A DNA stretch of 19,272 nt from Candidatus Latescibacteria bacterium 4484_181 (GTDB taxonomy: Bacteria; Latescibacterota; MVCY01): assembly GCA_002049985.1 (NCBI GenBank), contig MVCY01000057.1, positions 1 through 19,272 on the forward strand, written 5' to 3'. Below the pieces are notes generated by a model, which was given only the letters and a program-made list of their open reading frames with translations, was not told where the DNA came from and made no database searches. Of this stretch, positions 23 to 19,003 are shown one piece after another (position 1 is the stretch's first letter; each line of letters opens with the position of its first letter). Made by a program: the position numbers and the translations under genes.

Positions 23-1218
23 CTAACCTCTTTTCAATAGATTAAGAAACTCCTCTGCTGTCTTCCAAATATCGCCCGCACCAAAAGTGATTACCAAATC
101 TCCTGGCCGGGTAATCTGGAGCAGATACCCTGCAATTTCCGCTTTTTCGCGTATATAAGTAACAGCTGGATGACCACGTTTTCTGGCAGCGGCGGCTACG
201 AGTTCGCCGCTTACCTCAGGAATGGGAGGCTCCCTGGCGGGGTAGATATCTGTAACTACTATCACATCGGAGACAGACAGCGCCCGGCCGAAATCTTGGT
301 GGAAATCCCTGGTGCGGCTATAAAGATGTGGCTGCGGCAATCTCAGTAGGATGGTGTGCATAGTCATCTACTATGGTGATGCCTCTGACTGTACCTTTCA
401 CTTCGAATCTCCGGTGTACACCGCTGAATTCCTCCAAGGCCTTTTTAATCTTTTCGAATTTTATCTGTAGTTCCAGCCCTACAGCGGCTGCAGCCAGAGC
501 ATTTTTAATATTGTGAACCCCCGGGACCCGTAACCTGATCCCCCCAAGGTTCTCTCCTCGATAACAGAGGTTAAAGCTTCACGAACTCCAAGAACGCCGA
601 TTTGATCTGAGCCAGGTCTTTGTAGCAGTCCAGGTGGTCGGTCTCTATGTTGGTCACCACTGCCACGGTGGGAATGAGCTGTAGAAAGGAGCGGTCGAAC
701 TCATCGGCTTCGGCCACTAAGAATTCGCTGTTCCCCAGTTTTGCGTTTGTACCCAAACTGCGGATGCGGCCCCCAACAATTATGGTAGGGTCCAGTCCAC
801 CCTGGGTTAAGACGCGCCCTGTCATCCAAGCGGTGGTGGTCTTGCCATGGGTGCCAGCAATACCGATGCCGTACTTCATTCGCATCAGCTCTCCTAACAT
901 CTCGGCGCGCCGGATGATCGGTATCTTTCTCTCCCTGGCCCTTACCAGCTCTGGGTTAGAAGATTTAACCGCTGAGGAGTAAACCACTATATCTGCTCCC
1001 TCAACATTCTCTGGCTTATGACCTTCGGTAACTTTAATATCCAAGGACTCTAAATGCTCGGTGATAGACGTTTTCTTAAGGTCAGAGCCAGTCACTCGAT
1101 GCCCAAGGTTGTGAAGCACCTCAGCGATTCCACTCATTCCGATGCCGCCAATACCCACAAAATGAATATTCCTGATCCGCTTCAGCATCGGTTTTTTGTC
1201 TGAAGGAGTTCTCTGCAT
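23..1218 (-). pseudogene. murC: UDP-N-acetylmuramate--L-alanine ligase MurC, disrupted. N-terminal fragment 574..1218, internal out-of-frame fragment about 321..570, C-terminal fragment 26..367
   Basis: The N-terminal ORF has GIGGIGMSG, the GTHGKTTT P-loop and the TNIETDHLD motif, and ends at TAA 573..571 right after ...AFLEFVKL. The next frame reads ...VPGVHNIKNALAAAAVGLEL...RRFEVKG...ITIVDDYAHHPTEI and then hits a stop at 320..318. The third frame continues QPHLYSRTRDF...DIYPAREPPIPEVSG...ITFGAGDI to the stop at 25..23. Compared with E. coli and B. subtilis MurC, about 55-60 residues are missing between FLxxL and PGxHN, and about 18 between DDYAHHPTEI and QPHxYSRT. Confidence 0.8.
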
Positions 1219-1280: not shown

Positions 1281-2384
1281 CTATATCAGGCCATTCTTTA
1301 TCATTGTGCTGACAATAAGCTCTGCAGCTCTCGGGCGAGCTAACTTCCTGCTATTCTCAGCCATCTGCTGAAGTTCTCTTTTGTTATTTAACAATTCCCT
1401 GATGATGGTGGCAAGGCGTCTGCCATTCAACTCTCTGTCTGCGATTAGACGGCAAGCTCCGGCTTCAAGCAATACCCGGGCATTCTGTTGCTGGTGAAAT
1501 CTGGTGGCATATGGATAAGGGACTAGAATCGAGGGTAACCCGCATCTGGTCAATTCTGCAATAGTTGTGGCCCCTGATCTGGATATAACCAGGTCTGCCG
1601 CCCCCAACGCAGAGGCCATATCAACAATAAAGTCCCAAACAATAACAGGTAAACTAAAAGAGCGCGTCTTTTTTTTCACCTTGGGGTAATCCTTCTTGCC
1701 CGTCTGCCAGAGAATCTGAAGGTTACTGGCCCCGGAAAGCTCCCCGAGTGCCTCCAGCAGCGCCTGGTTGATTCTGCTAGCCCCTTGACTGCCTCCGAAA
1801 ACGAGCACAGTTTTCTTAGAGCTATCCAAGCCCAGCCTCCTGTGTGCCTCCGGTCTTGTGACCGTACCTATCTCTCTTCTAGTCGGATTGCCGCACACTA
1901 CCAGATTGTGGTAATTGGAGAGATATTTCTTTGTTTGCTCAAAGCTTACATTGACCTGTCGGGCAATCCTGGTCAGCATTCTGGTGGTTACTCCGGGCAG
2001 AAGGTTCTGCTCCTGAATAACCACTGGTATCCCCAGGAGCCAGGCAGTGGTCAACACCGGCCCGCTGGCGTATCCTCCCGTCCCTATCGCCACTCGAGGA
2101 CGATAGGTGATCACTATCCAGGCCGCCTGGAGGGTTCCCACCACCAACACCATCGGGAACATGAGAGCTCGCAGGGAAAACCCTCTGGGCAAGCTCCAAG
2201 CAGCTATAGTCTTAAACCTATACCCTGTCTGAGAGACCAGTTGGGTTTGCATCCCCCGGCGTGCGCCCACGAACAGTATCTGTGCTTCGGGATATCTACT
2301 TTTTATCTCATCGGCAATTGCAACAGCAGGGAATATATGTCCTCCTGTTCCTCCAGCGGCAAAAAGCACCCTCAGCCCTGCCAT
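1281..2384 (-). CDS. murG: MurG, undecaprenyldiphospho-muramoylpentapeptide beta-N-acetylglucosaminyltransferase (367 aa, looks intact)
   Basis: N-terminal glycine loop FAAGGTGGHIFPA, GT-B fold length, and position between ftsW and murC. Starts at ATG 2384. Confidence 0.9.
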   Translation of the reverse strand: MAGLRVLFAAGGTGGHIFPAVAIADEIKSRYPEAQILFVGARRGMQTQLVSQTGYRFKTIAAWSLPRGFSLRALMFPMVLVVGTLQAAWIVITYRPRVAIGTGGYASGPVLTTAWLLGIPVVIQEQNLLPGVTTRMLTRIARQVNVSFEQTKKYLSNYHNLVVCGNPTRREIGTVTRPEAHRRLGLDSSKKTVLVFGGSQGASRINQALLEALGELSGASNLQILWQTGKKDYPKVKKKTRSFSLPVIVWDFIVDMASALGAADLVISRSGATTIAELTRCGLPSILVPYPYATRFHQQQNARVLLEAGACRLIADRELNGRRLATIIRELLNNKRELQQMAENSRKLARPRAAELIVSTMIKNGLI

Positions 2385-2463
2385 ACCTGTTTTCCCTTCC
2401 TAGAAATACTGAGTAATATCCCTGTGCTTGCCAAAGAGGCAAGCAAAGAAGAGCCCCCATAGC

Positions 2464-3324
2464 TTATGAACGGCAGCGGTAATCCATAGCCACCGTTCCG
2501 ATAAAACCCCATTCTTCCCCTATTATGGAGTAGATAAAGTCGGTGTGGGGGGCAGGCAAGAAGAGGAATTTCTGCCTGCTGTGACCCAGTCCCAATCCCC
2601 GCAGACCCCCGCTCCCCAGCGCTACAAGCGATTGATACGTTTGGTAATTTATACCTTGAAGATTTTCTGCTGGATGCAAAAAGGCCTTCAGTCTGGCCAA
2701 TCTGTAGCCTACCTGAGATATAGAAAGATAGATAACGGGAACCGCTGCCAATACAAGACCTCCTAAATGGAGAAGCTTTATTCCGGCCAAGAAGAACATA
2801 GCCGTGACTACCGTCATAATGGCCACAGCGGTACCTAAAGCCGGCTCCAAGATAATCAAACCCACGGCCATAAGGAGAATCAATAGATGGGGTAGGAACC
2901 CCCAGACAAAACTCTTTATTCGATCCTGTCGCCTCGCCAGTGAATCAGCCATATAGATGATCAATGCGACTTTCATAAATTCCGAGGGTTGAAAATTGAA
3001 CCTGCCAATGTGAATCCAGCGGCAGACCTTTTGAGGCTGACCTGTAAACTTCGGCATTAACACCAGCACCAAGAGAAGAAATCCCAACAGCAGAAGAGAT
3101 ATTGCCGCTGTGCCAGAAAGCTTGCTGTAGTCAGTAAGCGAGGCCAGAATCATCACCGATGTCCCCAGTAGAACTATAAATAGATGCTTCTTCAGAAAGA
3201 AACTGCTGTCTTGGTACTTCACCTCCGAGATCACCGAACTGGAGCTGTAAACCATCACCACCCCTATTCCCACCAGTACTATAGTGACGGCTAATAGTGT
3301 GAGGTCAACGGAATTCTCCTTCAC
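2464..3324 (-). CDS. ftsW: FtsW (SEDS-family lipid II flippase/polymerase), C-terminally truncated at 286 aa
   Basis: Multi-TM protein with the SEDS motif ...PAPHTDFIYSIIGEEWGFIG, but the ORF stops about 10 residues later (DYRCRS*). The last two TM helices and the conserved PTKG..TLPF(I/L)SYGGSS block are absent. Only 79 nt separate the stop from the murG start, so the missing ~80 codons are not present in any frame. GTG start at 3324 is preceded by the Shine-Dalgarno-like run GGGGGAG. Confidence 0.75.
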   Translation of the reverse strand: MKENSVDLTLLAVTIVLVGIGVVMVYSSSSVISEVKYQDSSFFLKKHLFIVLLGTSVMILASLTDYSKLSGTAAISLLLLGFLLLVLVLMPKFTGQPQKVCRWIHIGRFNFQPSEFMKVALIIYMADSLARRQDRIKSFVWGFLPHLLILLMAVGLIILEPALGTAVAIMTVVTAMFFLAGIKLLHLGGLVLAAVPVIYLSISQVGYRLARLKAFLHPAENLQGINYQTYQSLVALGSGGLRGLGLGHSRQKFLFLPAPHTDFIYSIIGEEWGFIGTVAMDYRCRS

Positions 3325-3364
3325 TTTCTCCCCCTTCCAGGCATGGAAGAAAACCCCGCCGCTT

Positions 3365-4453
3365 TTATCTGATCTTAAGCGTACTTAAACTGAGCAGGGC
3401 AAAAAGTAGCCCCAGGATCCAGAAACGGATAACAATTTTAGATTCTCTCCACCCCTTGAGCTCAAAATGATGATGGATGGGAGCCATTAGAAATACCCTT
3501 CTTCCTCGCCACTTGAAGGAGGCAACCTGGATTATAACCGAAAGCGCCTCGATCACAAATACTCCTCCAATAATCACCAACAGTAACTCTTGCTTCACCA
3601 AGACAGCCACTATAGCCAGAGCTCCTCCTAAGGCCAGGGCGCCTGTATCCCCCATAAATACCTGGGCAGGATGAGCATTATACCACAGGAAACCCAGACA
3701 AGCACCTAAGGCGGACAGACAAAAGACCGTCAGCTCTCCTACTCCGGGCAGATAGAGGATATTCAGGTAATGGCTGAATACACTGTGGCCGCTCACATAA
3801 CTAAAAGCAGCGTAAGCGGCCACCGCAATGCCCACCAGCCCAATGGCTAACCCATCCAGACCATCGGTTAGATTGACCGCGTTAGAAGTCCCTGTGACCA
3901 CAAGGACTACTAAAGGGATGTAGAGCCAATGAAAATCAATAAGATAATTCTTTAAGAAAGGCAAATTTGTCTTAGTTGCCACCTGTTCAGAAAGAGGGTA
4001 AAGATAGAGAATGAGTCCAATTGTGAGACCTAAGCCAATCTGACCTAAAAGTTTGTATCTGCCAACTAATCCTTTGGGTGTTTTCTTGACCGTCTTAAGG
4101 TAGTCATCGACAAGGCCCACTGCGCCCATCCAAACTGTGGAGAAAAGAACCAGAAGCACGTATCGATTGGACAGATCCGCCCACAGGAGCGTGGGGAGAA
4201 CGATAGCCAGAAGGATTAGGATTCCTCCCATTGTTGGGGTCCCTTGCTTGGACCGATGCTCCTTTGGTACATAGCGGTTGATTTGCTCGCACAGTTGACG
4301 ACTCTTGAGTTTGCCGATAACCCAGGGACCGAAGACAAAACTCACAAGCAGGGCCGTTATGGCTGCATAGGCTGATCTAAAAGTTATATATCTGAAAATA
4401 TTAAAACCGGAGAAATACTTCAATAAGACCTTGTAAAAAAGACAATAAAACAT
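3365..4453 (-). CDS. mraY: MraY, phospho-N-acetylmuramoyl-pentapeptide transferase (362 aa, looks intact)
   Basis: Polytopic membrane protein with the motifs GLVDDYLK, NAVNLTDGLDGLA and APIHHHFE. ATG at 4453 is preceded by the Shine-Dalgarno-like GAAAGGGG. Confidence 0.9.
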   Translation of the reverse strand: MFYCLFYKVLLKYFSGFNIFRYITFRSAYAAITALLVSFVFGPWVIGKLKSRQLCEQINRYVPKEHRSKQGTPTMGGILILLAIVLPTLLWADLSNRYVLLVLFSTVWMGAVGLVDDYLKTVKKTPKGLVGRYKLLGQIGLGLTIGLILYLYPLSEQVATKTNLPFLKNYLIDFHWLYIPLVVLVVTGTSNAVNLTDGLDGLAIGLVGIAVAAYAAFSYVSGHSVFSHYLNILYLPGVGELTVFCLSALGACLGFLWYNAHPAQVFMGDTGALALGGALAIVAVLVKQELLLVIIGGVFVIEALSVIIQVASFKWRGRRVFLMAPIHHHFELKGWRESKIVIRFWILGLLFALLSLSTLKIR

Positions 4454-4532: not shown

Positions 4533-5792
4533 TCACCGGTACTTGCCACAGTCTATATTTTCCATAATCTCTTCCATTCTCAGCCTCCGGGAACCTTTGA
4601 TCAAAATCACATCTCCCTCTCTCAAAAACTGGGAAAGCCACTCCGAAACTTCCTGGTTATCTTGGAAGTGCCTGGTCTTTCCGGTCATCCCCAGACTATC
4701 TGCCTTATGGGACGCCAGCTTCGACAATTCTCCCACGGTCAACAGATAGTCAATACTGCTTTCTGCCACATACTGGCCAATCTGTTCGTGAGCCTGTGGG
4801 CCGTGCTCTCCCAGTTCTAACATATCTCCCAACACAGCAATTCGTCGCCCTCACAGCAATTCGTCGCCCTTGAGGTTTAACTTCCAGAGAAATAAGCAAT
4901 TGCAGTGCAGCTTTTGTCGAATCAGGGTTGGCATTATAGGTGTCATTGATGAATCTGACACCGCCTTTGTCCAGCATCTGGCATCTGAGGGCCGGGGGCC
5001 GAACCAGCAGAGGACTTCTGCCTGGAGATCCGTCCTGGCCTTGATTCCAAACCCTACAAATCTTCCCTTAACTTCACTACTTATGGCCTGCAGGTATGGG
5101 TCGTCCATATTGAGCACCACAGGGCCTGAGTTGTTCAGATATCTTATCAGCTCTGCCTTGGACTGCGCTATCTGCTGGATGGTGCCGAAACCCTCAAGGT
5201 GAGCCGGGCCGATGTTAGTAATAAGACCCGTCTCAGGGGCAGCTAACTCTGCCAGTCGTCCTATTTCCCCCGGGGCACTTGCCCCTAACTCTACCACCCC
5301 AAACTCATGTTGAGGAGAAAGCCGTAAGAGCGTGAGGGGAAGACCAATGTGGTTGTTAAGATTACCCTCCGTCTTAAGTACCCGGAACCGGGTGCCCAGA
5401 ATCTCCGCAGTCATATCCTTAGTGGTAGTTTTGCCATTTGTCCCTGTAATAGCAACAAAGGGGATAGGGAATCTTCTCCTATAGGAGGCTGCCAGTCTTT
5501 GTAGAGCCAGCAAGGGATCATCCACCCTGATCAGCAATCCATCACTTTCTGCCAGCTTCGGATAATCTCGCCGGACAATGGCTGCACTGGCCCCTTTCTT
5601 GAGTGCCTGGGGCACAAACTGGTGCCCATCGAATCTTTCCCCTTTGAGGGCAAAGAATACCTGACCCCTCTGGAGTGTTCGGGAGTCTATGGAAACGCCT
5701 TGCGGTTTCCGGCTCAGAGAGGATGGAACAGAATTCCCTTCTGCCTGACCACCAACATCAACAATAATCTCTTCTATCGAAAGTCCCTTCAT
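4533..5792 (-). pseudogene. murF: UDP-MurNAc-pentapeptide synthetase MurF, split over three reading frames (about 5009..5792, about 4870..4977, 4536..4832)
   Basis: Frame 1 has the GTNGKTTT P-loop and reads through ...VGFGIKARTDLQAEVL. Frame 2 reads LDKGGVRFINDTYNANPDSTKAALQLL...GRRIAV. Frame 3 reads LGDMLELG...VILIKGSRR to the stop at 4535..4533. The 2-to-3 shift is caused by a perfect 19-bp tandem duplication. The 1-to-2 junction also lacks about 70 residues compared with E. coli MurF. Confidence 0.8.
4833..4870. repeat. Perfect 19-bp tandem duplication (cacagcaattcgtcgccct x2) inside murF
   Basis: Copy one is 4833..4851 and copy two is 4852..4870, identical. Removing one copy restores the MurF reading frame (...GRRIAVLGDMLELGEHG...). 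Confidence 0.9.
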
Positions 5793-7277: not shown

Positions 7278-9245
7278 TTACTGTAAACCGTTTTCTGCCT
7301 CAATTAAGCAGACTGTGCCGGCTTTGACCTTAACTCCTGCCGGGGGGATTTGTCTTCGTACAACACCTGTGCCGACAATCTTCACCTTTATTCTCTGGCG
7401 GTGGAGGAGATCTACTGCTTCCCTGAGGCTCATCCCGGTCACTCTGGGCATGAGATGACCCCCATCACCATGGTCTGCATAAGCCCGTGATTGATTTCTA
7501 GTTTGCATTTCTAAGGGGGAGGAAATGAGAGAATCGGTGCGGACTGCAAGTGTTGCCGACTTTCCCCTTATCGGGCAGTCATTTAAACTGAGGATGCGGC
7601 TGATGATTCTCTTAAAAGTGGGGGCAGCTACCTGTCCGGCCCAGTGATTTTTTTGCGGTTCATCAATGCTCACCAAGCAAAGCAGCTGAGGCTCCTCGGC
7701 TGGTAGAAATCCTACAAAGGAACAGATTACCTTTTGAGGGTCGTATCCCCGGCCATTCTGTCGGCTTTTCTGCGCAGTGCCTGTTTTACCAGCTATGGAG
7801 AAGCCTTCTATCTTGGCCTCAACTCCGGTGCCCGACTCTACCACATCGCACAGAATTTCGGTAACTGTCCTAGCGGTTTTCTCTGAAACCACCTTTCGTA
7901 CCACCTCAGGAGATTGTTCCTTTATGAGCTTACCGTCTTTGCTGCTAATAGCCTTAAGGACATAGGGTTTCATCAAATATCCCCCGTTGGCAATAGCGCA
8001 GTAGGCGGTGGCGAGCTGAAGAGGGGTGGCGGATATCTCCTGCCCTATAGCTATTGTAGCCAGCGACCTCTTAGACCAAGAAGACGGGTGGTGCACAATT
8101 CCCTTTGCCTCACCTGGCAGTCCGATCCCGGTTCTGGTACCAAAGCCAAAGGCTCGGATGTAGTGGTAGAATCGCTTTTCACCGACCGCCTGAGCTATCT
8201 TTATCGCTCCGATATTGCTGGAGTGTTTAATCACATCCTTAAGGGTGAGCCATCCATAGCTGTGCCAGTCATGGATAGTCCCGCCGGCCACTTTCATCTT
8301 GCCGTTTTCACAGAAGATAAGGTCTGTGGGGTTCCTCAACCCCTCCTCCAAAACAGCTGAAATAGCAACCACTTTAAAGATAGAGCCGGGTTCGAAACAG
8401 TCCCTAATCGCTCTGTTCTTCCTGTTCCCTGGATTACAGGAAGCAGGATGATTAGGATCGTAAGAGGGAACGGAGGCCATTGCTAGAACTTCACCAGTCT
8501 TAGGGTTCATAATGAGAGCTGTTGCCGCCTTTGCGTCAAAACGGCGGACAGCGGCTTCTAACTCCTCTTCGGCGATGGCCTGGTATCTGGAGTCTATTGT
8601 CAGGACAACATTAAGGCCGTCGCGGGCTCCTTTTGGGCTATTCCCAAAGATAGAGAGCTTTCTTCCCCAAGCATCGACTCCCGAGACCGCCCATCCGTTA
8701 GTGCTTCGTAAGTACTTGTCAAAAGCGAATTCTACCCCTTCAATCCCCCGATTGTCGACATCGGTGCCCCCTATGAGTTGTCCTGCCACAGAACCCAGAG
8801 GATAGTTTCGCTTCGCCTCTTCTATCTCTCTTATTTCTGTCAGATTCAGAGAGTCGAGCCTTCTTGCTATCTTCCAGTCCAGCTTTCTGGCTAACCAGAC
8901 AAACGATCCCTTATGCTTTAGCCGTCTGAGAAACAGACTCTCGGGTTTCTCCGTGAGAGTGGAAAGACAAGCAGCTACTTTAGCCGGATGTTCTATCTCC
9001 ATCGGATTGGCTGCTAAAGAACGGGTAGAAATGTCGACGGCCAGACTGACACCATTTCGGTCCAGGATATTGCCCCGCTTGCCTCGCAGACTGATTCTCT
9101 GCTCACTCTGCCTTTTGCTCTTCCGCAAATAGGTCTTGCCGTTGAGCAATTGAATGTGGATCAGACGATTTGTTAAAAATAGCCAAACAATAACGATAAT
9201 GAGCCCTACGAGATAAAGCTTAGCTACATAAACTCGTTCCTTCAT
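7278..9245 (-). CDS. ftsI: FtsI-type class B penicillin-binding protein with a C-terminal PASTA domain (655 aa)
   Basis: N-terminal TM helix, a dimerisation domain, the transpeptidase motifs SIFK (SxxK), SSN and KTGT, and a C-terminal PASTA-like ~65-aa module. Confidence 0.9.
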   Translation of the reverse strand: MKERVYVAKLYLVGLIIVIVWLFLTNRLIHIQLLNGKTYLRKSKRQSEQRISLRGKRGNILDRNGVSLAVDISTRSLAANPMEIEHPAKVAACLSTLTEKPESLFLRRLKHKGSFVWLARKLDWKIARRLDSLNLTEIREIEEAKRNYPLGSVAGQLIGGTDVDNRGIEGVEFAFDKYLRSTNGWAVSGVDAWGRKLSIFGNSPKGARDGLNVVLTIDSRYQAIAEEELEAAVRRFDAKAATALIMNPKTGEVLAMASVPSYDPNHPASCNPGNRKNRAIRDCFEPGSIFKVVAISAVLEEGLRNPTDLIFCENGKMKVAGGTIHDWHSYGWLTLKDVIKHSSNIGAIKIAQAVGEKRFYHYIRAFGFGTRTGIGLPGEAKGIVHHPSSWSKRSLATIAIGQEISATPLQLATAYCAIANGGYLMKPYVLKAISSKDGKLIKEQSPEVVRKVVSEKTARTVTEILCDVVESGTGVEAKIEGFSIAGKTGTAQKSRQNGRGYDPQKVICSFVGFLPAEEPQLLCLVSIDEPQKNHWAGQVAAPTFKRIISRILSLNDCPIRGKSATLAVRTDSLISSPLEMQTRNQSRAYADHGDGGHLMPRVTGMSLREAVDLLHRQRIKVKIVGTGVVRRQIPPAGVKVKAGTVCLIEAENGLQ

Positions 9246-9247
9246 CG

Positions 9248-9529
9248 TTATTCTCTTAGTTCCACAAGAAGTTCCTCTGGTGGAGCGTCAGGGGGAAACA
9301 TTCCCAGTTTTTCTGAGGCTATTTTTTTGACCCTCGAGGCACCGGACAAACGAGCTATCTGGGTCTGTAGATGTCTTTTCTCCTCAATCAGTTTTTGCTT
9401 CTGAAGATATAGGGCATCGATCTCCTTTTTCAGGCTGGTCACTGTCACCTGTTCCCAGACATACGCTAACATACCCGCTACTAAAATAATGAACAGCAAA
9501 ACAAACCTCACAAATGTTTGCCGTTTCAT
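9248..9529 (-). CDS. ftsL: FtsL-like cell division protein (93 aa, one TM helix plus coiled coil)
   Basis: Small bitopic protein with a leucine-rich heptad region, sitting exactly between rsmH and ftsI. Its start overlaps the rsmH stop (ATGA at 9526..9529). Confidence 0.6.
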   Translation of the reverse strand: MKRQTFVRFVLLFIILVAGMLAYVWEQVTVTSLKKEIDALYLQKQKLIEEKRHLQTQIARLSGASRVKKIASEKLGMFPPDAPPEELLVELRE

Positions 9530-10302
9530 TTCGAATCCGCTGTCTTCTCTGCTACTCTCAGTTTAGCACTTCTTGCCCGCCGGTTGGCCTTTTTCTCCTC
9601 TTCACTGGGTAAGATTGGCCTTTTGGCAATCAACTTCAGTATCTTTTTCCCCCCGCATACACAAGTCGGAAGTCGAGGAGGACAGATACAGCCTTTAGAG
9701 TACTGAATGAATAACGATTTAATTGTGCGATCCTCCAAGGAGTGATAAGAAATAATACAAAGCCTTCCTCCGGCCTTCAGAAGGTTGATGCACTGTTCAA
9801 CAGAAGGCCTCAGGATTTCGAGTTCCAGCTCCTCTTCCGGATAGGTATTAACCACCTGCCAGGCCGTCTTTTGGGCCTGGGGATTCATCCTCATATCCAG
9901 CGGACCGCGGAACCTGTAGCTGAAACCACGCCTGGGAGAGTCAAGCTGATGGGAAGAGACTCCCAAATCGAGTAGTATCCCGTCTACAGCTTCAATGCCT
10001 TGCTGTTGCAAGATTGCCGGTAAGTTTTGGAATCCCGACAGATGAAAGCTGACTTTTTCGCCGAAGAGAGAGAGTCTCCTCTTGGCTGCCTGGATTGCCT
10101 CCGGGTCCTGGTCTATGGCGATCAGCCTTCCCCTCTCGCCTAAGCCGGAGAGAACCTGGTAAGCGTGCCCGCCCCCTCCCACCGTGCCATCGACATATAT
10201 CCCGTCCGGATTGGTGAGAAGATATTCCACCGTCTGCCTCAGAAGCACCGGAAAGTGAAAATCCTGTTGGGCAGTCATAGTTTCACACTTGGAACTCCTC
10301 AC
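9526..10302 (-). CDS. rsmH: 16S rRNA (cytosine1402-N4)-methyltransferase RsmH/MraW, abnormally short; the likely true start is ATG 10278 (the track ORF begins at GTG 10302)
   Basis: The SAM-binding motifs (DGTVGGGGHA, ILLDLGVSSHQLD) and the C-terminal GGRLCIISYHSLEDR and RARSAKLRV are present. About 55-60 residues between ...NTYPEEEL and ELEILRP..., which in other RsmH proteins include the HPATRTFQA(L/I)RI block, are missing in-frame. ATG 10278 lies 4 nt after the mraZ stop. Confidence 0.8.
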   Translation of the reverse strand: MRSSKCETMTAQQDFHFPVLLRQTVEYLLTNPDGIYVDGTVGGGGHAYQVLSGLGERGRLIAIDQDPEAIQAAKRRLSLFGEKVSFHLSGFQNLPAILQQQGIEAVDGILLDLGVSSHQLDSPRRGFSYRFRGPLDMRMNPQAQKTAWQVVNTYPEEELELEILRPSVEQCINLLKAGGRLCIISYHSLEDRTIKSLFIQYSKGCICPPRLPTCVCGGKKILKLIAKRPILPSEEEKKANRRARSAKLRVAEKTADSK

Positions 10303-11102: not shown

Positions 11103-11246
11103 ATTTGTCAACAATCACTGAACTTCAGCTTATTTTCTGGCGAACTGACAGTAGCAGGGCAGAGAAGGCGAAACGACATAGATCAACACGGGGATCCAAA
11201 AGAAAATCCCTGGGCATCGAAGTGCATCAAAAGGGAGGTAATTGAG

Positions 11247-12020
11247 ATGGCAATTATGTGGATGTTTCTTCTATTTATCGGTATTATGCTCCTGAGCAGT
11301 GCCATCAGGGTCTTACGGGAATACGAGCGTGGGGTGGTCTTCAGACTGGGCCGATTGGTGGGGGCCAAAGGGCCGGGTTTGATTCTTCTTATTCCCATGA
11401 TCGACCGCATGACGAAAGTGAGCCTGAGGACAGTCACTATGGATATTCCCCCTCAGGATGTGATCACCAAGGACAATGTCTCCATTAAGGTTAATGCCGT
11501 GCTGTATTTCCGAGTAATAGAGGCAGAGAAAGCCGTGGTTGAGGTGGAAGATTATCTCTATGCCACCTCCCAGCTAGCACAGACAACCCTGCGCAGCGTG
11601 TTAGGAGAGGTAGAGCTGGACGAGTTACTCTCTGAAAGAGAGAAAATCAATGTGCGTCTGCAGGGTATCATAGACCAGCAGACAGACCCCTGGGGAATTA
11701 AAGTTTCCATCGTAGAGGTGAAACATGTGGATTTGCCTCAGGATATGCAGCGGGCAATAGCCAGACAGGCCGAGGCAGAACGGGAGCGCAGAGCGAAGAT
11801 CATCCACGCCGAGGGGGAACTGCAGGCGGCCTCAAAGCTCCTTGAAGCCTCTCAGTGTATGGCTAGGGAGCCCATAAGCTTGCAATTGAGATTTTTGCAA
11901 ACCCTAACCGAGGTGGCCTCAGAGAACAATTCCACCACCATCTTCCCTGTCCCCATAGACCTACTCACTCCCTTTATGAAACAAGGGGAAGGGAGGAGAA
12001 GACCTTCAGAGGAGAAATAA
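11247..12020 (+). CDS. Stomatin/prohibitin-family (SPFH, band 7) membrane protein, 257 aa
   Basis: N-terminal TM helix followed by an SPFH core ([12 protein letters not shown]..., TKDNV...V...YFRV, ...[26 protein letters not shown], and the coiled coil [13 protein letters not shown]). Collinear with archaeal and bacterial stomatins. RBS AAGGGAGG lies 7 nt before ATG 11247; the track ORF from 11004 carries an unsupported N-terminal extension. Confidence 0.85.
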
Positions 12021-13306: not shown

Positions 13307-14176
13307 GGATTGAATGCCAAGAAAAGAGAAAGCAGTTAATCCTCAAGCAATTTGTCTATCTTGCTCTTTATTCACGGATCCACTTTGAAAGTAGTCTTTT
13401 GATTGTCTGAGACCACTGTTCTTTTCAAAAATAGGTATAGAAAACTCCTTCTTTAAGGTCTCACTCAGCCGAGAGAATAGCTGATGTAAGGTTTTGGAAT
13501 GAATAGCCCTCCTACTGAGCCGGTTGTAGAAGATCTAGATTCTCTCCAGAAGACGAGAAGAATACGCAGATGGCGCAGGCTATTCTCAAAACGACCAGAG
13601 AGCTGTATATCTTGTTTCGTTCGCCTTTTTATCGCCACTTGCGGTCAGATCAAATTTTCGCGAGAGCGTGATCTTCGGTTTTCGTTGCTGAGCTACGGCT
13701 GGCTTTATCCTCGGAATCGGCCGCACTGCCCACTTGCCACGGCGGGGTTTAATCGCTTGAAATCAACGCTAAGGAAACTGAATGTTTGCTCCTATGTGAG
13801 TCTTAGCATGTGGTCTTTTCCCGGTTCAGCCTAATATCAACCTCATTCAACTCACCAAGAGTGTCTGTCTGCCGTTTTTGCCGGCCAAGCAATTTTCGAA
13901 AATCCCTACACGGATTGCCAGTCAGGCAGCCCGGGAGAACCTCACTCTCAGGCGATCACACATTGGGACATAAACCTCGCGGCTCATGCCACCTATCGCC
14001 CGACCGCTGGTAGTATTCCCACCGCGAATGGAGAATAGTTCCAGCTGGCACACCAGAAATGAAAAGGGAAATATACTAACTTGCTGACTATTCGAGAAAC
14101 ACATTCTGTTGTGGTCTCAGTATCTTTGCAGCAAGAAGCGGCTTTGTGTCCTTCTGGGGGCGGATTAAAGTTTCCC

Positions 14177-14205
14177 TTGACAAAACTTGATGTTTGTTGT
14201 ATAAT
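14177..14205 (+). promoter_or_regulatory. Perfect-consensus sigma-70 promoter upstream of map
   Basis: TTGACA (14177..14182), an exact 17-nt spacer, then TATAAT (14200..14205). GGAG sits 10 nt before the GTG start at 14241. Confidence 0.55.
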
Positions 14206-14240
14206 GACTTTTCCTAGCTTTACCGCGGAGCCCAATCAAT

Positions 14241-14999
14241 GTGTTTATTTTGAAGTTCTTAGGTGTGACACCGCAATATGATTTCCTTGCAACCTTGAGA
14301 AATCTGATACAGCCGGGGATAACTACCAAAGAGCTGGACCAAATAGCAGAGGACCTGATATTGAAGAAAGGCGCTGTCCCTGCCTTTAAGGGATACATGG
14401 GTTATCCGGCAGCTCTTTGCACCTCGGTCAACGAAGAGGTGATTCACGGAGTCCCAGGGCCTCGCCAGCTCAAACCGGGGGACATAGTGAGCTTGGACTT
14501 AGGGGTGAAGCTTGGTGGTTACTATGGTGATGCCACCATCACAGTGCCGGTGGGAGAGGTGAGCAAAGAGGCCGAAAGGCTGCTTCGGGTAACAGAAATG
14601 GCCCTGTATGAAGGGATAAAAATGGCCCGGGTCGGCAATCGACTTTACGACATATCCTATGCCATTCAATCCCTCGTAGAGTCCAATGGCTTCTCTGTAG
14701 TGAGAGATTTTGTGGGACACGGAATCGGTAAGAATTTGCACGAAGAACCCCAGATACCTAATTTCGGACGTCCAGGTCACGGCCCGCGACTCAAAGAGGG
14801 AATGGTGCTGGCGTTGGAACCTATGGTCAATGAGGGGGGATGGCAAGTGAGAATTCTGCCAGATGGATGGACAGTCGTTACTGCTGACGGTAAGCTGTCT
14901 GCACATTTTGAACATACCATAGCTGTCACTGACACTGACCCAGAGATATTGAGTCTCCCATCCTCATCAGGGGAAGGCCAGAAAATTCTGAGGAGCTGA
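14241..14999 (+). CDS. map: Methionine aminopeptidase type I (252 aa) with an atypical or shortened N-terminus
   Basis: The full pita-bread core is present ([35 protein letters not shown] metal ligands, [28 protein letters not shown]). The N-terminal region ([29 protein letters not shown]) lacks the usual ~12-residue EKMRxAGR(L/I)xAE segment between TPE and the KPG turn. GTG start at 14241; an in-frame alternative GTG lies at 14265. Confidence 0.85.
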
Positions 15000-15032
15000 A
15001 AGTGGAAAAAGACAGACTTAAGCAGCAGGTAG

Positions 15033-15932
15033 CAACATAACATAATAGCCACTGCCTCGGTAGGGGCAGCAATCGGTTTGACCGAGGTGATAAGTCACCT
15101 TAAGGGCACTATTCAGGTTATAGGCACCCCCGCTGAAGAGAGCGGTTGCGGGAAGAAGATCCTGGTAGAGAAAGGGATATTCAGCGGGGTGGACGCTGCA
15201 ATGATGGTTCACCCTTCCAATCGCACCTTGGTGGCACGGGGTTCCCTGGCTTCCCAACTGGTGGAGGTGAAATTTTACGGCAAGGCTGCTCACGCTGCTG
15301 CTTATCCAGAGAATGGCATCAATGCCTTAGACGGAGTCATCGAGACCTTTAATAACATCAACGCCCTTCGACAGCACCTGCCGAGTGATGTCCGCATCCA
15401 CGGTATTATCACGCACGGGGGAACAAGAACCAATATTGTGCCCGACTTCGCTGCCGCCCGCTTCCAGGTGAGGACCGCTGACGACGAATACCTTGATCAA
15501 TTGTTACAGAAAGTGGAAAACTGTGCTCGAGCGGCAGCTCTGGCCACAGGAGCCACCGTAGAATTCGTACTGAGTAACAGTCTTTACCAGGCTATGAGAC
15601 CCAACCGTGCCCTGGCCGAACTATTCGCCGCCAATCTTCGCCACCTTGGTGAGAAATTAGACGAACCACCACAGACCGGAACGATGGGGTCCACCGATAT
15701 GGGGAATGTGAGCCAGGCAGTACCAGCTATTCACCCATATATTGCTATCTGTCCCAAAGAGGTAGTGGCACATTCACCACAATTCGCTGAGGCTGCCATT
15801 TCTGACAGGGCGGATAGAGCGTTGATAACCGCTGCTAAGGCTTTGGCGATGACTGCTGTAGACCTGTTGAGCAATGCCGCTGTGATGAGTAGAGTGCAGC
15901 AGGAATTCAAATCGCACCATCAGAAATATTGA
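15033..15932 (+). pseudogene. M20-family amidohydrolase/peptidase (M20D-like) lacking its N-terminal ~100 residues
   Basis: The open frame begins right after the TAG at 15030..15032 and reads ...IATASVGAAIGL...LKGTIQVIGTPAEESGCG (the M20 GTPAEE motif), then the dimerisation and C-terminal domains to the stop at 15932. The N-terminal metal-binding region is absent. No ATG or GTG lies between 15033 and the TTG at 15078. Confidence 0.7.
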
Positions 15933-17302: not shown

Positions 17303-19003
17303 ATGCCTTACAAACCTGAGAATCCGATGGTTGTCCAGAGTGACCGGACTATTCTGTTAGAGGTAGACAATCCTCGTTACGAGGATGCCAGGGACCGGTT
17401 AGCAAGATTTGCTGAACTGGAGAAAAGTCCCGAACACATGCACACCTACCGTATAACTCCGCTTTCGCTGTGGAATGCGGCTGCCTCTGGGCTGAGCGCC
17501 TCTGAGGTGTTGGATACCCTGGGCCGTTTCAGTAAGTACGAGATCCCTCAGAATATTGAGGCTGAGGTGATGGAGTATATCTCTCGCTACGGGAAGTTAC
17601 AACTTTGTCGATCAGGAGAAAAGCTGGTCCTGAGCTCGACGGACGCCCACATCATCAAAGAGATCTGGCACAACAGAGAGGTGCGACCGTATCTGAAAGA
17701 ACTTGTCGACGGGAAGGCCATTCTGGTGGAACCCCGCTGCAGAGGCTACCTGAAACAAGAGCTCATCAAATTTGGTCTGCCGGTGGAGGATTTGGCGGGC
17801 TACGTCGAGGGCGCTCCTCTCACCTTACTGATACGTGAGAAAACGCGAAGTGGACGGAAGTTCCAGTTGCGACCATATCAGCAGCAAGCAGTTGAGGTTT
17901 TCCACGCCAGCGGAGGTGCAACTGGGGGTTCAGGGGTAATCGTGCTTCCCTGTGGGGCTGGTAAAACGATTGTAGGAATGGCTGCAATAGAGAAGCTCCA
18001 GACCCAAACCCTCGTCTTGGTGACCAATATCACTGCCCTCCGACAATGGGAGGAAGAACTGTTGGATAAAACCACTCTTTCTGCCGACCAAATAGGCGAA
18101 TACTCCGGAGAGAAGAAGGAGGTACGTCCTGTCACCATTGCCACTTATAACATCCTCACCTACCGAAGGAGCAGAGAGGAAGATTTTCCCCATTTTGAGC
18201 TGTTTAACCGGCAGAACTGGGGGTTGGTGATTTACGATGAGGTCCATCTGCTGCCAGCGCCGGTTTTTCGTATTACTGCCGAGATTCAAGCCAGAAGACG
18301 GCTGGGGCTGACCGCCACCCTGGTGCGCGAAGACGGAAGGGAGACAGATGTGTTCAGCCTCATCGGACCCAAGAAATATGATGTGCCCTGGAAAATACTG
18401 GAAAAGCAGGGCTGGATCGCGCCTGCCGAGTGCTGGGAAATAAGAGTGGAGCTTCCTCCACAATTGAGGCTCCGGTATGCAGCGACAAACCTGCGGAAAA
18501 AGTTCCGGGTCGCATCGGAAAACCCCGCCAAGGACGAATTGGTGATAAGGCTGGTGCACCAGCACAGAGGTGCCCAGATCCTGGTGATTGGACAATACAT
18601 CGCCCAACTGGAAAACCTTGCCCGAAAACTGAACGCGCCGATCATCACTGGCAAAGTGGGGAGTTGGGAAAGGATCAAGCTTTACAACATGTTCAAACGA
18701 GGCGAGATTAAACTGTTAGTGGTGTCCAAAGTGGCCAACTTCGCCGTCGACCTGCCGGATGCTAATGTAGCCATCCAGGTCTCCGGCACGTTCGGCTCCA
18801 GACAAGAGGAGGCTCAAAGGTTGGGCAGGATACTCCGTCCCAAGACAGATGGAAGTACAGCTCGCTTCTACTCCCTGGTTACTCGAAATACTACAGAACA
18901 GGAGTTCGCCGCAAACAGACAACTGTTCCTTACTGAACAGGGCTATAAGTACACGATTCAAGACGCGACAGTCTTCTTCAGCCTAAGAAGCCGGAGGCGA
19001 TAG
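17303..19003 (+). CDS. XPB/ERCC3 (Rad25)-like SF2 DNA helicase, 566 aa
   Basis: N-terminal damage-recognition-like domain, then helicase motifs: Q/I (LRPYQQQAV...LPCGAGKT), II (VIYDEVH), III with the XPB-specific RED motif (GLTATLVREDGRE), and VI (QRLGRILR). RBS GAGAGG lies 4 nt before ATG 17303. Confidence 0.85.
   Translation: MPYKPENPMVVQSDRTILLEVDNPRYEDARDRLARFAELEKSPEHMHTYRITPLSLWNAAASGLSASEVLDTLGRFSKYEIPQNIEAEVMEYISRYGKLQLCRSGEKLVLSSTDAHIIKEIWHNREVRPYLKELVDGKAILVEPRCRGYLKQELIKFGLPVEDLAGYVEGAPLTLLIREKTRSGRKFQLRPYQQQAVEVFHASGGATGGSGVIVLPCGAGKTIVGMAAIEKLQTQTLVLVTNITALRQWEEELLDKTTLSADQIGEYSGEKKEVRPVTIATYNILTYRRSREEDFPHFELFNRQNWGLVIYDEVHLLPAPVFRITAEIQARRRLGLTATLVREDGRETDVFSLIGPKKYDVPWKILEKQGWIAPAECWEIRVELPPQLRLRYAATNLRKKFRVASENPAKDELVIRLVHQHRGAQILVIGQYIAQLENLARKLNAPIITGKVGSWERIKLYNMFKRGEIKLLVVSKVANFAVDLPDANVAIQVSGTFGSRQEEAQRLGRILRPKTDGSTARFYSLVTRNTTEQEFAANRQLFLTEQGYKYTIQDATVFFSLRSRRR

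Follow-up and report, generated by a model that had tools for sequence, protein, structure and literature searches.

The dcw cluster and its ftsW reading frame

The stretch of DNA analysed here, called the window in what follows, comprises the 19,272 nucleotides (nt) of contig MVCY01000057.1 from Candidatus Latescibacteria bacterium 4484_181. The genes of its left half all lie on the minus strand and follow the dcw order mraZ-rsmH-ftsL-ftsI-murE-murF-mraY-ftsW-murG-murC, as they do in the intact contigs from other samples described below. The ftsW open reading frame (ORF; 2464–3324, minus strand) occupies the position of FtsW in this cluster, between mraY/murD and murG: mraY (3365–4453, minus strand, 362 aa) is found directly upstream and murG (1281–2384, minus strand, 367 aa) downstream, both of them intact.

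Between mraY and ftsW, murD is absent in the window (3325–3364), in the corresponding stretch of one intact contig (L001, 8864–8903) and in a Latescibacterota relative at 84% identity (L015, 3684–5998), and the cluster has no ddl either (murC-murB-ftsQ). The missing murD was considered as a further lesion of the window and rejected, as the intact contigs and the 84%-identical relative share this gene order. The absence of murD and ddl appears instead to be a feature of the dcw cluster in this lineage.

As encoded in the window, ftsW yields 286 aa, of which residues 1–279 are native and identical to those of the intact 369-aa FtsW of locus L001, and the last seven (MDYRCRS) are a frameshift tail. 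The C-terminal end of the ORF reads ...GEEWGFIGTVAMDYRCRS and the terminal stretch of the 286-aa translation ...PHTDFIYSIIGEEWGFIGTVAMDYRCRS, each followed by the stop. This premature stop codon (TAA) is located at 2464–2466 and the ATG of murG at 2382–2384, which leaves a spacer at 2385–2463. The initial annotation had placed the stop about 10 residues after the GEEWGFIG motif, with 79 nt between it and the murG ATG. Both observations were confirmed, the ORF ending 10 residues past the motif and the coordinates giving a spacer of exactly that length.

FtsW proteins have ten transmembrane (TM) helices, among which TM8 and TM9 bind the transmembrane helix of FtsI, a class B penicillin-binding protein (bPBP), and they carry a putative catalytic Asp in ECL4 (Pa D275/Ec D297; Pa, P. 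aeruginosa; Ec, E. coli) (PMC7614612). In the window, the residue aligned with Pa D275 is D262, within the PHTDFIY motif (PAPHTDFIY). It belongs to the retained residues 1–279, so that the window ORF resembles P. aeruginosa FtsW in keeping the putative catalytic Asp. Nevertheless, the ORF ends within TM8 and does not reach the ten helices (boundaries were set by inspection of the hydrophobic stretches). The 286 residues match the Pfam profile FTSW_RODA_SPOVE (PF01098) over positions 3–270 of 356 only, short of the full domain, whereas the intact FtsW covers positions 3–354.

The internal gap in ftsW and its stranded 3' end

Compared with the intact sequence, the window lacks 157 nt at a junction between positions 2486 and 2487, with 1 nt of microhomology. 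The missing nucleotides correspond to positions 11207–11363 of the merged ERZ2433807 NODE_504 sequence, used as the reference, and the same absence is seen against loci L002–L004, L009 and L010. Codons 280–332 are gone and the frame is shifted by +1, the frame change being explained by the length of the gap (157 = 3 × 52 + 1). The 53 internal residues missing from the window FtsW (280–332; ILCLFLVFIWRGLKIAHSAPDLHGFLLASGLTTMIATYAAVNIGVATGVCPTT) were searched by tblastn in the whole window and found nowhere, and a search of the window by the same method for a second SEDS gene retrieved none.

In contrast, the native 3' end of ftsW is still present on the other side of the junction. In the +1 frame of the minus strand, positions 2375–2485 translate to GLPLPFISYGGSSLLASLASTGILLSISRKGKQVWQG followed by a stop, a stretch that takes in the 79-nt spacer as well as the ORF's final 22 nt. 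This orphaned 3' end (2372–2485, minus strand) holds codons 333–369 (GLPLPFISYGGSS...KQVWQG), out of frame, and the native TGA, at 2372–2374, which gives a 13-nt overlap with the beginning of murG. The 37-residue peptide is 100% identical to residues 333–369 of the intact FtsW (tblastn, 37 aa, frame -3), and it matches PF01098 at positions 324–355 with an E-value of 1.2e-9 and a score of 38.1 bits, the cut-off of the profile being 26.4 bits. The C-terminal P-x-(T/K)-G...LPF(I/L)SYGGSS block is accordingly out of frame: LPLPFISYGGSS is encoded at 2375–2485 in the +1 frame, and its PTTG part is deleted. When the two pieces of FtsW from the window are joined, positions ~270–323 of PF01098 are still missing.

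These results change the interpretation of the locus. According to the initial annotation, the last ~80 residues of FtsW were not encoded anywhere and the spacer gave no SEDS-like sequence in the other frames; the former is contradicted by the native C-terminus encoded at 2375–2485 and the latter by the profile match of that same peptide. The alignment to the SEDS profile that it had proposed as a check bears out the incomplete coverage of the 286 residues, with the qualification that the missing block at 324–355 is present out of frame. As a general lesson, no sequence should be called lost until the "spacer" behind a truncated ORF has been translated in every frame.

The same annotation had explained the short ORF by a C-terminal deletion of the last ~80 ftsW codons that fused the gene almost directly to murG. 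On that reading, the organism would be without the SEDS C-terminal helices and would have to rely on another SEDS protein. The stop 10 residues past GEEWGFIG and 79 nt before murG, together with a Pfam coverage that breaks off at 270 of 356, is what such a deletion would produce. However, the +1 frame still holds the final 37 codons with their native stop, the missing part is the internal 280–332, and across the ftsW/murG junction the window matches the intact contigs at every base, with the native 3' end, the PFISYGGSS block and the 13-nt overlap all untouched. The presence of both the native C-terminus and the native junction indicates that the lost piece is internal. There is no second SEDS gene in the window on which the organism could rely, but the intact allele in all other assemblies makes one unnecessary. 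We therefore regard a loss of the C-terminal codons as very unlikely. What stands of that proposal is that a deletion disrupts ftsW and that the encoded product has no C-terminal SEDS blocks; the lesion itself consists of an internal loss of 157 nt and a frameshift.

The deleted residues 280–332 align to residues ~293–348 of P. aeruginosa FtsW. Read from the hydrophobic pattern, the deleted stretch would comprise the second half of TM8, a cytoplasmic loop and TM9, together with the PTTG motif at the beginning of ECL5. The window copy thus differs from SEDS FtsW (PF01098; PDB 8BH1/8P1U) in the absence of residues 280–332, in its frameshift and in having no TM9, ECL5 or TM10. If made, the 279+7-residue FtsW would keep the catalytic loop; since the FtsI docking helices (TM8/TM9), ECL5 and TM10 would be lost, this product should be inactive. 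Taken at face value, such a truncated FtsW would suggest division without a septal peptidoglycan polymerase.

Intact alleles in other samples

An exact look-up of the MurG protein, a look-up of an RNase Z-like gene and a 50-mer scan provided ten comparison loci (L001–L010) from at least eight samples, namely ERZ2433807, ERZ27227322 and ERZ27227317 from ENA, SRR6301444 and SRR6478754 from Logan, and 3300005098, Ga0164310 and Ga0164318 from JGI. In every collinear block, these loci are 99.9–100% identical to the window (blastn), and comparing the intact contigs with one another over the window region gives 0–6 SNPs and 0–2 indel bases. Each locus spanning ftsW contains an intact 369-aa ftsW, and each locus covering any of the positions deleted in the window carries the segment that the window does not have. 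The identical MurG protein is present on at least six public contigs, where the adjoining FtsW is the intact 369-aa form, and the neighbours on the intact contigs are an RsmH of 315 aa, a MurF of 464 aa and a MurC of 467 aa; in the window, these three proteins and FtsW are all shortened or broken into fragments. Exact look-ups of the 286-aa FtsW, the 250-aa RsmH and the 215-aa MurC fragment of the window found none of them on record. The 50-mer beside the ftsW junction had 0 matches in the genome contigs scanned and was found in two metagenome contigs, both intact.

Over residues 6–360, the intact FtsW of this population can be aligned from one end to the other with the P. aeruginosa protein (structures 8bh1 and 8p1u; E ~3e-65), with no interruption at 280–332. 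Candidatus Latescibacterota MAGs at 80–84% identity and more distant relatives also match FtsW over residues 1–369. These alignments bear on whether the other contigs could have gained the 157 nt, for instance as a mobile or intervening element, with the window retaining the ancestral state. The bare difference in length would fit an insertion, but the segment encodes TM8b-TM9, aligns ungapped with the P. aeruginosa FtsW and RodA structures, and corresponds to Pfam positions ~270–324; it is present in all of the relatives at 80–84% identity and in the more distant ones, and the reading frame is broken without it. An insertion can be set aside as practically negligible in probability, and was rejected on the Pfam, PDB and relatives alignments. 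As the segment is present in all three kinds of alignment, the 157 nt are ancestral and it is the window that carries a deletion.

Going by the sequences of these contigs, the organism has a normal ftsW. The source of the window is a Candidatus Latescibacterota-like bacterium with an ordinary dcw-cluster ftsW; both its FtsW, as a SEDS protein, and the dcw cluster around it are of the standard type, and nothing about them is novel. That the copy in the window lacks the full domain length, the ten helices and an in-frame C-terminal block is due solely to the 157-nt loss.

Private lesions of the window and their origin

The ftsW deletion is one of seven deletions (53, 155, 157, 154, 195, 61 and 260 nt) that are private to the window in comparison with the intact contigs. 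Two of them affect murC (window 23–1218), with 53 nt missing between 334 and 335 and 155 nt between 578 and 579, so that the gene is split into ORFs of 215 and 114 aa, where the intact MurC has 467 aa. In murF (4533–5792), the gene is broken by a 154-nt deletion between 5003 and 5004 and by an abutting duplication of 19 nt. The deletion in rsmH (gene 9526–10302; 195 nt between 9825 and 9826) is in frame and removes 65 codons, leaving 250 aa instead of 315 aa from the same start codon, although the longest rsmH ORF in the window, starting at an upstream GTG, reaches 258 aa. Two further deletions fall within 14241–15932: one of 61 nt between 14283 and 14284, towards the 5' end of the methionine aminopeptidase gene map, and one of 260 nt between 15035 and 15036, after the first few codons of an M20 peptidase gene, which encodes 396 aa when intact and is reduced to a 284-aa remnant ORF. 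The lengths of the seven deletions modulo 3 are 2, 2, 1, 1, 0, 1 and 2, that is, six out of seven are out of frame and there is no in-frame preference. In addition, a private 2-nt deletion between 18972 and 18973 changes the final few codons of an XPB/ERCC3-like helicase gene and extends the helicase ORF to 19003.

Several properties of the seven sites were considered as possible causes. Repeat-mediated deletion was ruled out, as the microhomology at all seven junctions is only 0–2 nt, and so was an odd composition, as the missing sequences have a GC content of 0.44–0.55. Assembly bubbles at strain-variable sites are not indicated either: of the 18 sites with natural SNPs, only 2 lie where sequence was deleted, approximately the level expected by chance. 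Neither composition nor strain bubbles explain the placement of the gaps.

The piece of murF that precedes the 154-nt deletion (4853–5003) has a peculiar structure. It is exactly 151 nt long, and its first 19 nt (4853–4871) repeat the preceding 19 nt: the two pieces share 19 nt of the reference sequence and are abutted, not merged. It also contains four private transitions (4871, 4882, 4891 and 4899; C>T twice and G>A twice), all within its first 47 nt, and is otherwise equal to the reference. This looks like a single read or mini-contig that was joined into the scaffold with its overlap unmerged. No private base substitution occurs in the window outside this piece; its remaining SNPs, at 9063 and 14291, are natural variants that other contigs also carry. 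The variant at 9063 is common to the SRR6301444 contigs and the one at 14291 to the ERZ27227317 and SRR6478754 contigs, a mixture of variants from different samples that fits a mixed-population consensus or recombination.

The ftsW lesion is very probably a defect of the sequence record, arising in assembly, scaffolding or amplification, a technical cause that we infer from the combination of features above. The lesion is absent from the independent assemblies wherever these cover it, and the window shows several lesions irrespective of gene function and frame in an otherwise identical background; seven private deletions in such a background make an artefact much likelier than a biological loss of FtsW. 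The comparison itself shows that 157 nt are missing inside ftsW, between 2486 and 2487, in this copy of the sequence alone, and that six similar losses accompany them; the loss of residues 280–332 and the shift of frame lead to a stop after seven wrong residues, and the true C-terminus (the PFISYGGSS block, TM10 and the native stop) is left stranded out of frame in what appears to be a 79-nt spacer. The loss belongs to a series in which the gaps are on the scale of a read length and one overlap was not merged. Candidate processes are the collapse of scaffold gaps to zero length, the dropping of stretches that had no coverage, or chimeric amplification. Collapsed gaps or unmerged overlaps are suggested by the read-length scale of the losses, by the abutted 151-nt piece and by the private errors that cluster at a single junction.

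As in known assembly and scaffolding artefacts, the window has losses of 53–260 nt, three of them of 154–157 nt, without repeats at the junctions, and a duplicated overlap heading a piece with clustered errors, and the sequence between its junctions is otherwise identical to that of independent assemblies. Artefacts of this class are diagnosed from reads. The window differs from them in having no runs of N, and the complete lack of N characters counts against an artefact, as do the ordinary GC content of the deleted segments and the small number of natural SNP sites within them. Moreover, a de Bruijn assembler normally does not skip ~155 nt where there is no repeat.

The same lack of N characters, in a sequence that reads as a single continuous contig, is what one would expect if the deletions were real. 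They could then represent recent, multiple end-joining deletions (e.g., NHEJ after double-strand breaks) or a lineage that is starting to lose peptidoglycan and division genes, with ftsW as a fresh pseudogene. The 0–2 nt of microhomology at the junctions are as expected from end joining, and four of the seven deletions are located in three cell-wall or division genes (murC twice, murF and ftsW). The window also resembles recently host-restricted or degenerating genomes with their fresh pseudogenes, in that deletions shift the frame of several genes lying close together, cell-wall genes among them. However, degenerating genomes gain substitutions as well and still differ from their free-living relatives, whereas the background of the window is 99.98–100% identical to intact genomes of many samples, without a private isolated substitution. 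Mutation-accumulation studies show bacterial spectra in which substitutions are far more frequent than large deletions outside repeats, and the window presents the reverse, with seven deletions of 53 nt or more and a duplication set against essentially zero private isolated substitutions. Furthermore, three separately essential genes would have been knocked out at once, with murG, mraY, murE and ftsI free of any private change, and the simultaneous loss of separately essential genes argues against viability. Unrelated housekeeping genes (map, rsmH and the M20 peptidase gene) are damaged too, all but one of the deletions are out of frame, none of the seven occurs in any other sample, and the 151-nt piece with its clustered transitions looks technical. 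Likewise, gene decay is not what the comparison indicates, as the lesion is found in no other sample and all SNPs outside 4853–5003 are shared polymorphisms. Taken together, real deletions are improbable. Even less probable is their most specific form, a burst in a Latescibacterota cell line that lost murC, murF, ftsW, rsmH, map and the peptidase gene by end joining before it acquired one substitution; if true, it would represent a burst of double-strand-break repair or a first step towards a wall-less state.

With the sequence record as the probable site of the defect, the main use of the ftsW finding is as a warning about the quality of the window sequence. The window carries at least eight defects, and inferences of gene loss drawn from it (ftsW, murC, murF, rsmH, map and the M20 peptidase gene) need to be discarded or verified with reads.

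Two minor observations concern the right half of the window. The ~930 nt between an SDF-family transporter gene and map (13307–14240) contain no convincing ORF, Rfam match or tRNA, the Rfam and tRNA scans of the whole window having found nothing, and the equivalent stretch of an intact contig (L005, 7043–8015) has no called gene. The helicase gene extended by the 2-nt deletion (17303–19003) encodes a bacterial XPB/ERCC3-like protein with Helicase_C_3, ResIII and ERCC3_RAD25_C domains. In the intact contigs, this gene is followed by one (L005, 13458–15236) for a 592-aa protein with a Helicase_C_3 match and a faint match to Tfb2, and the two may form an XPB-partner gene pair.
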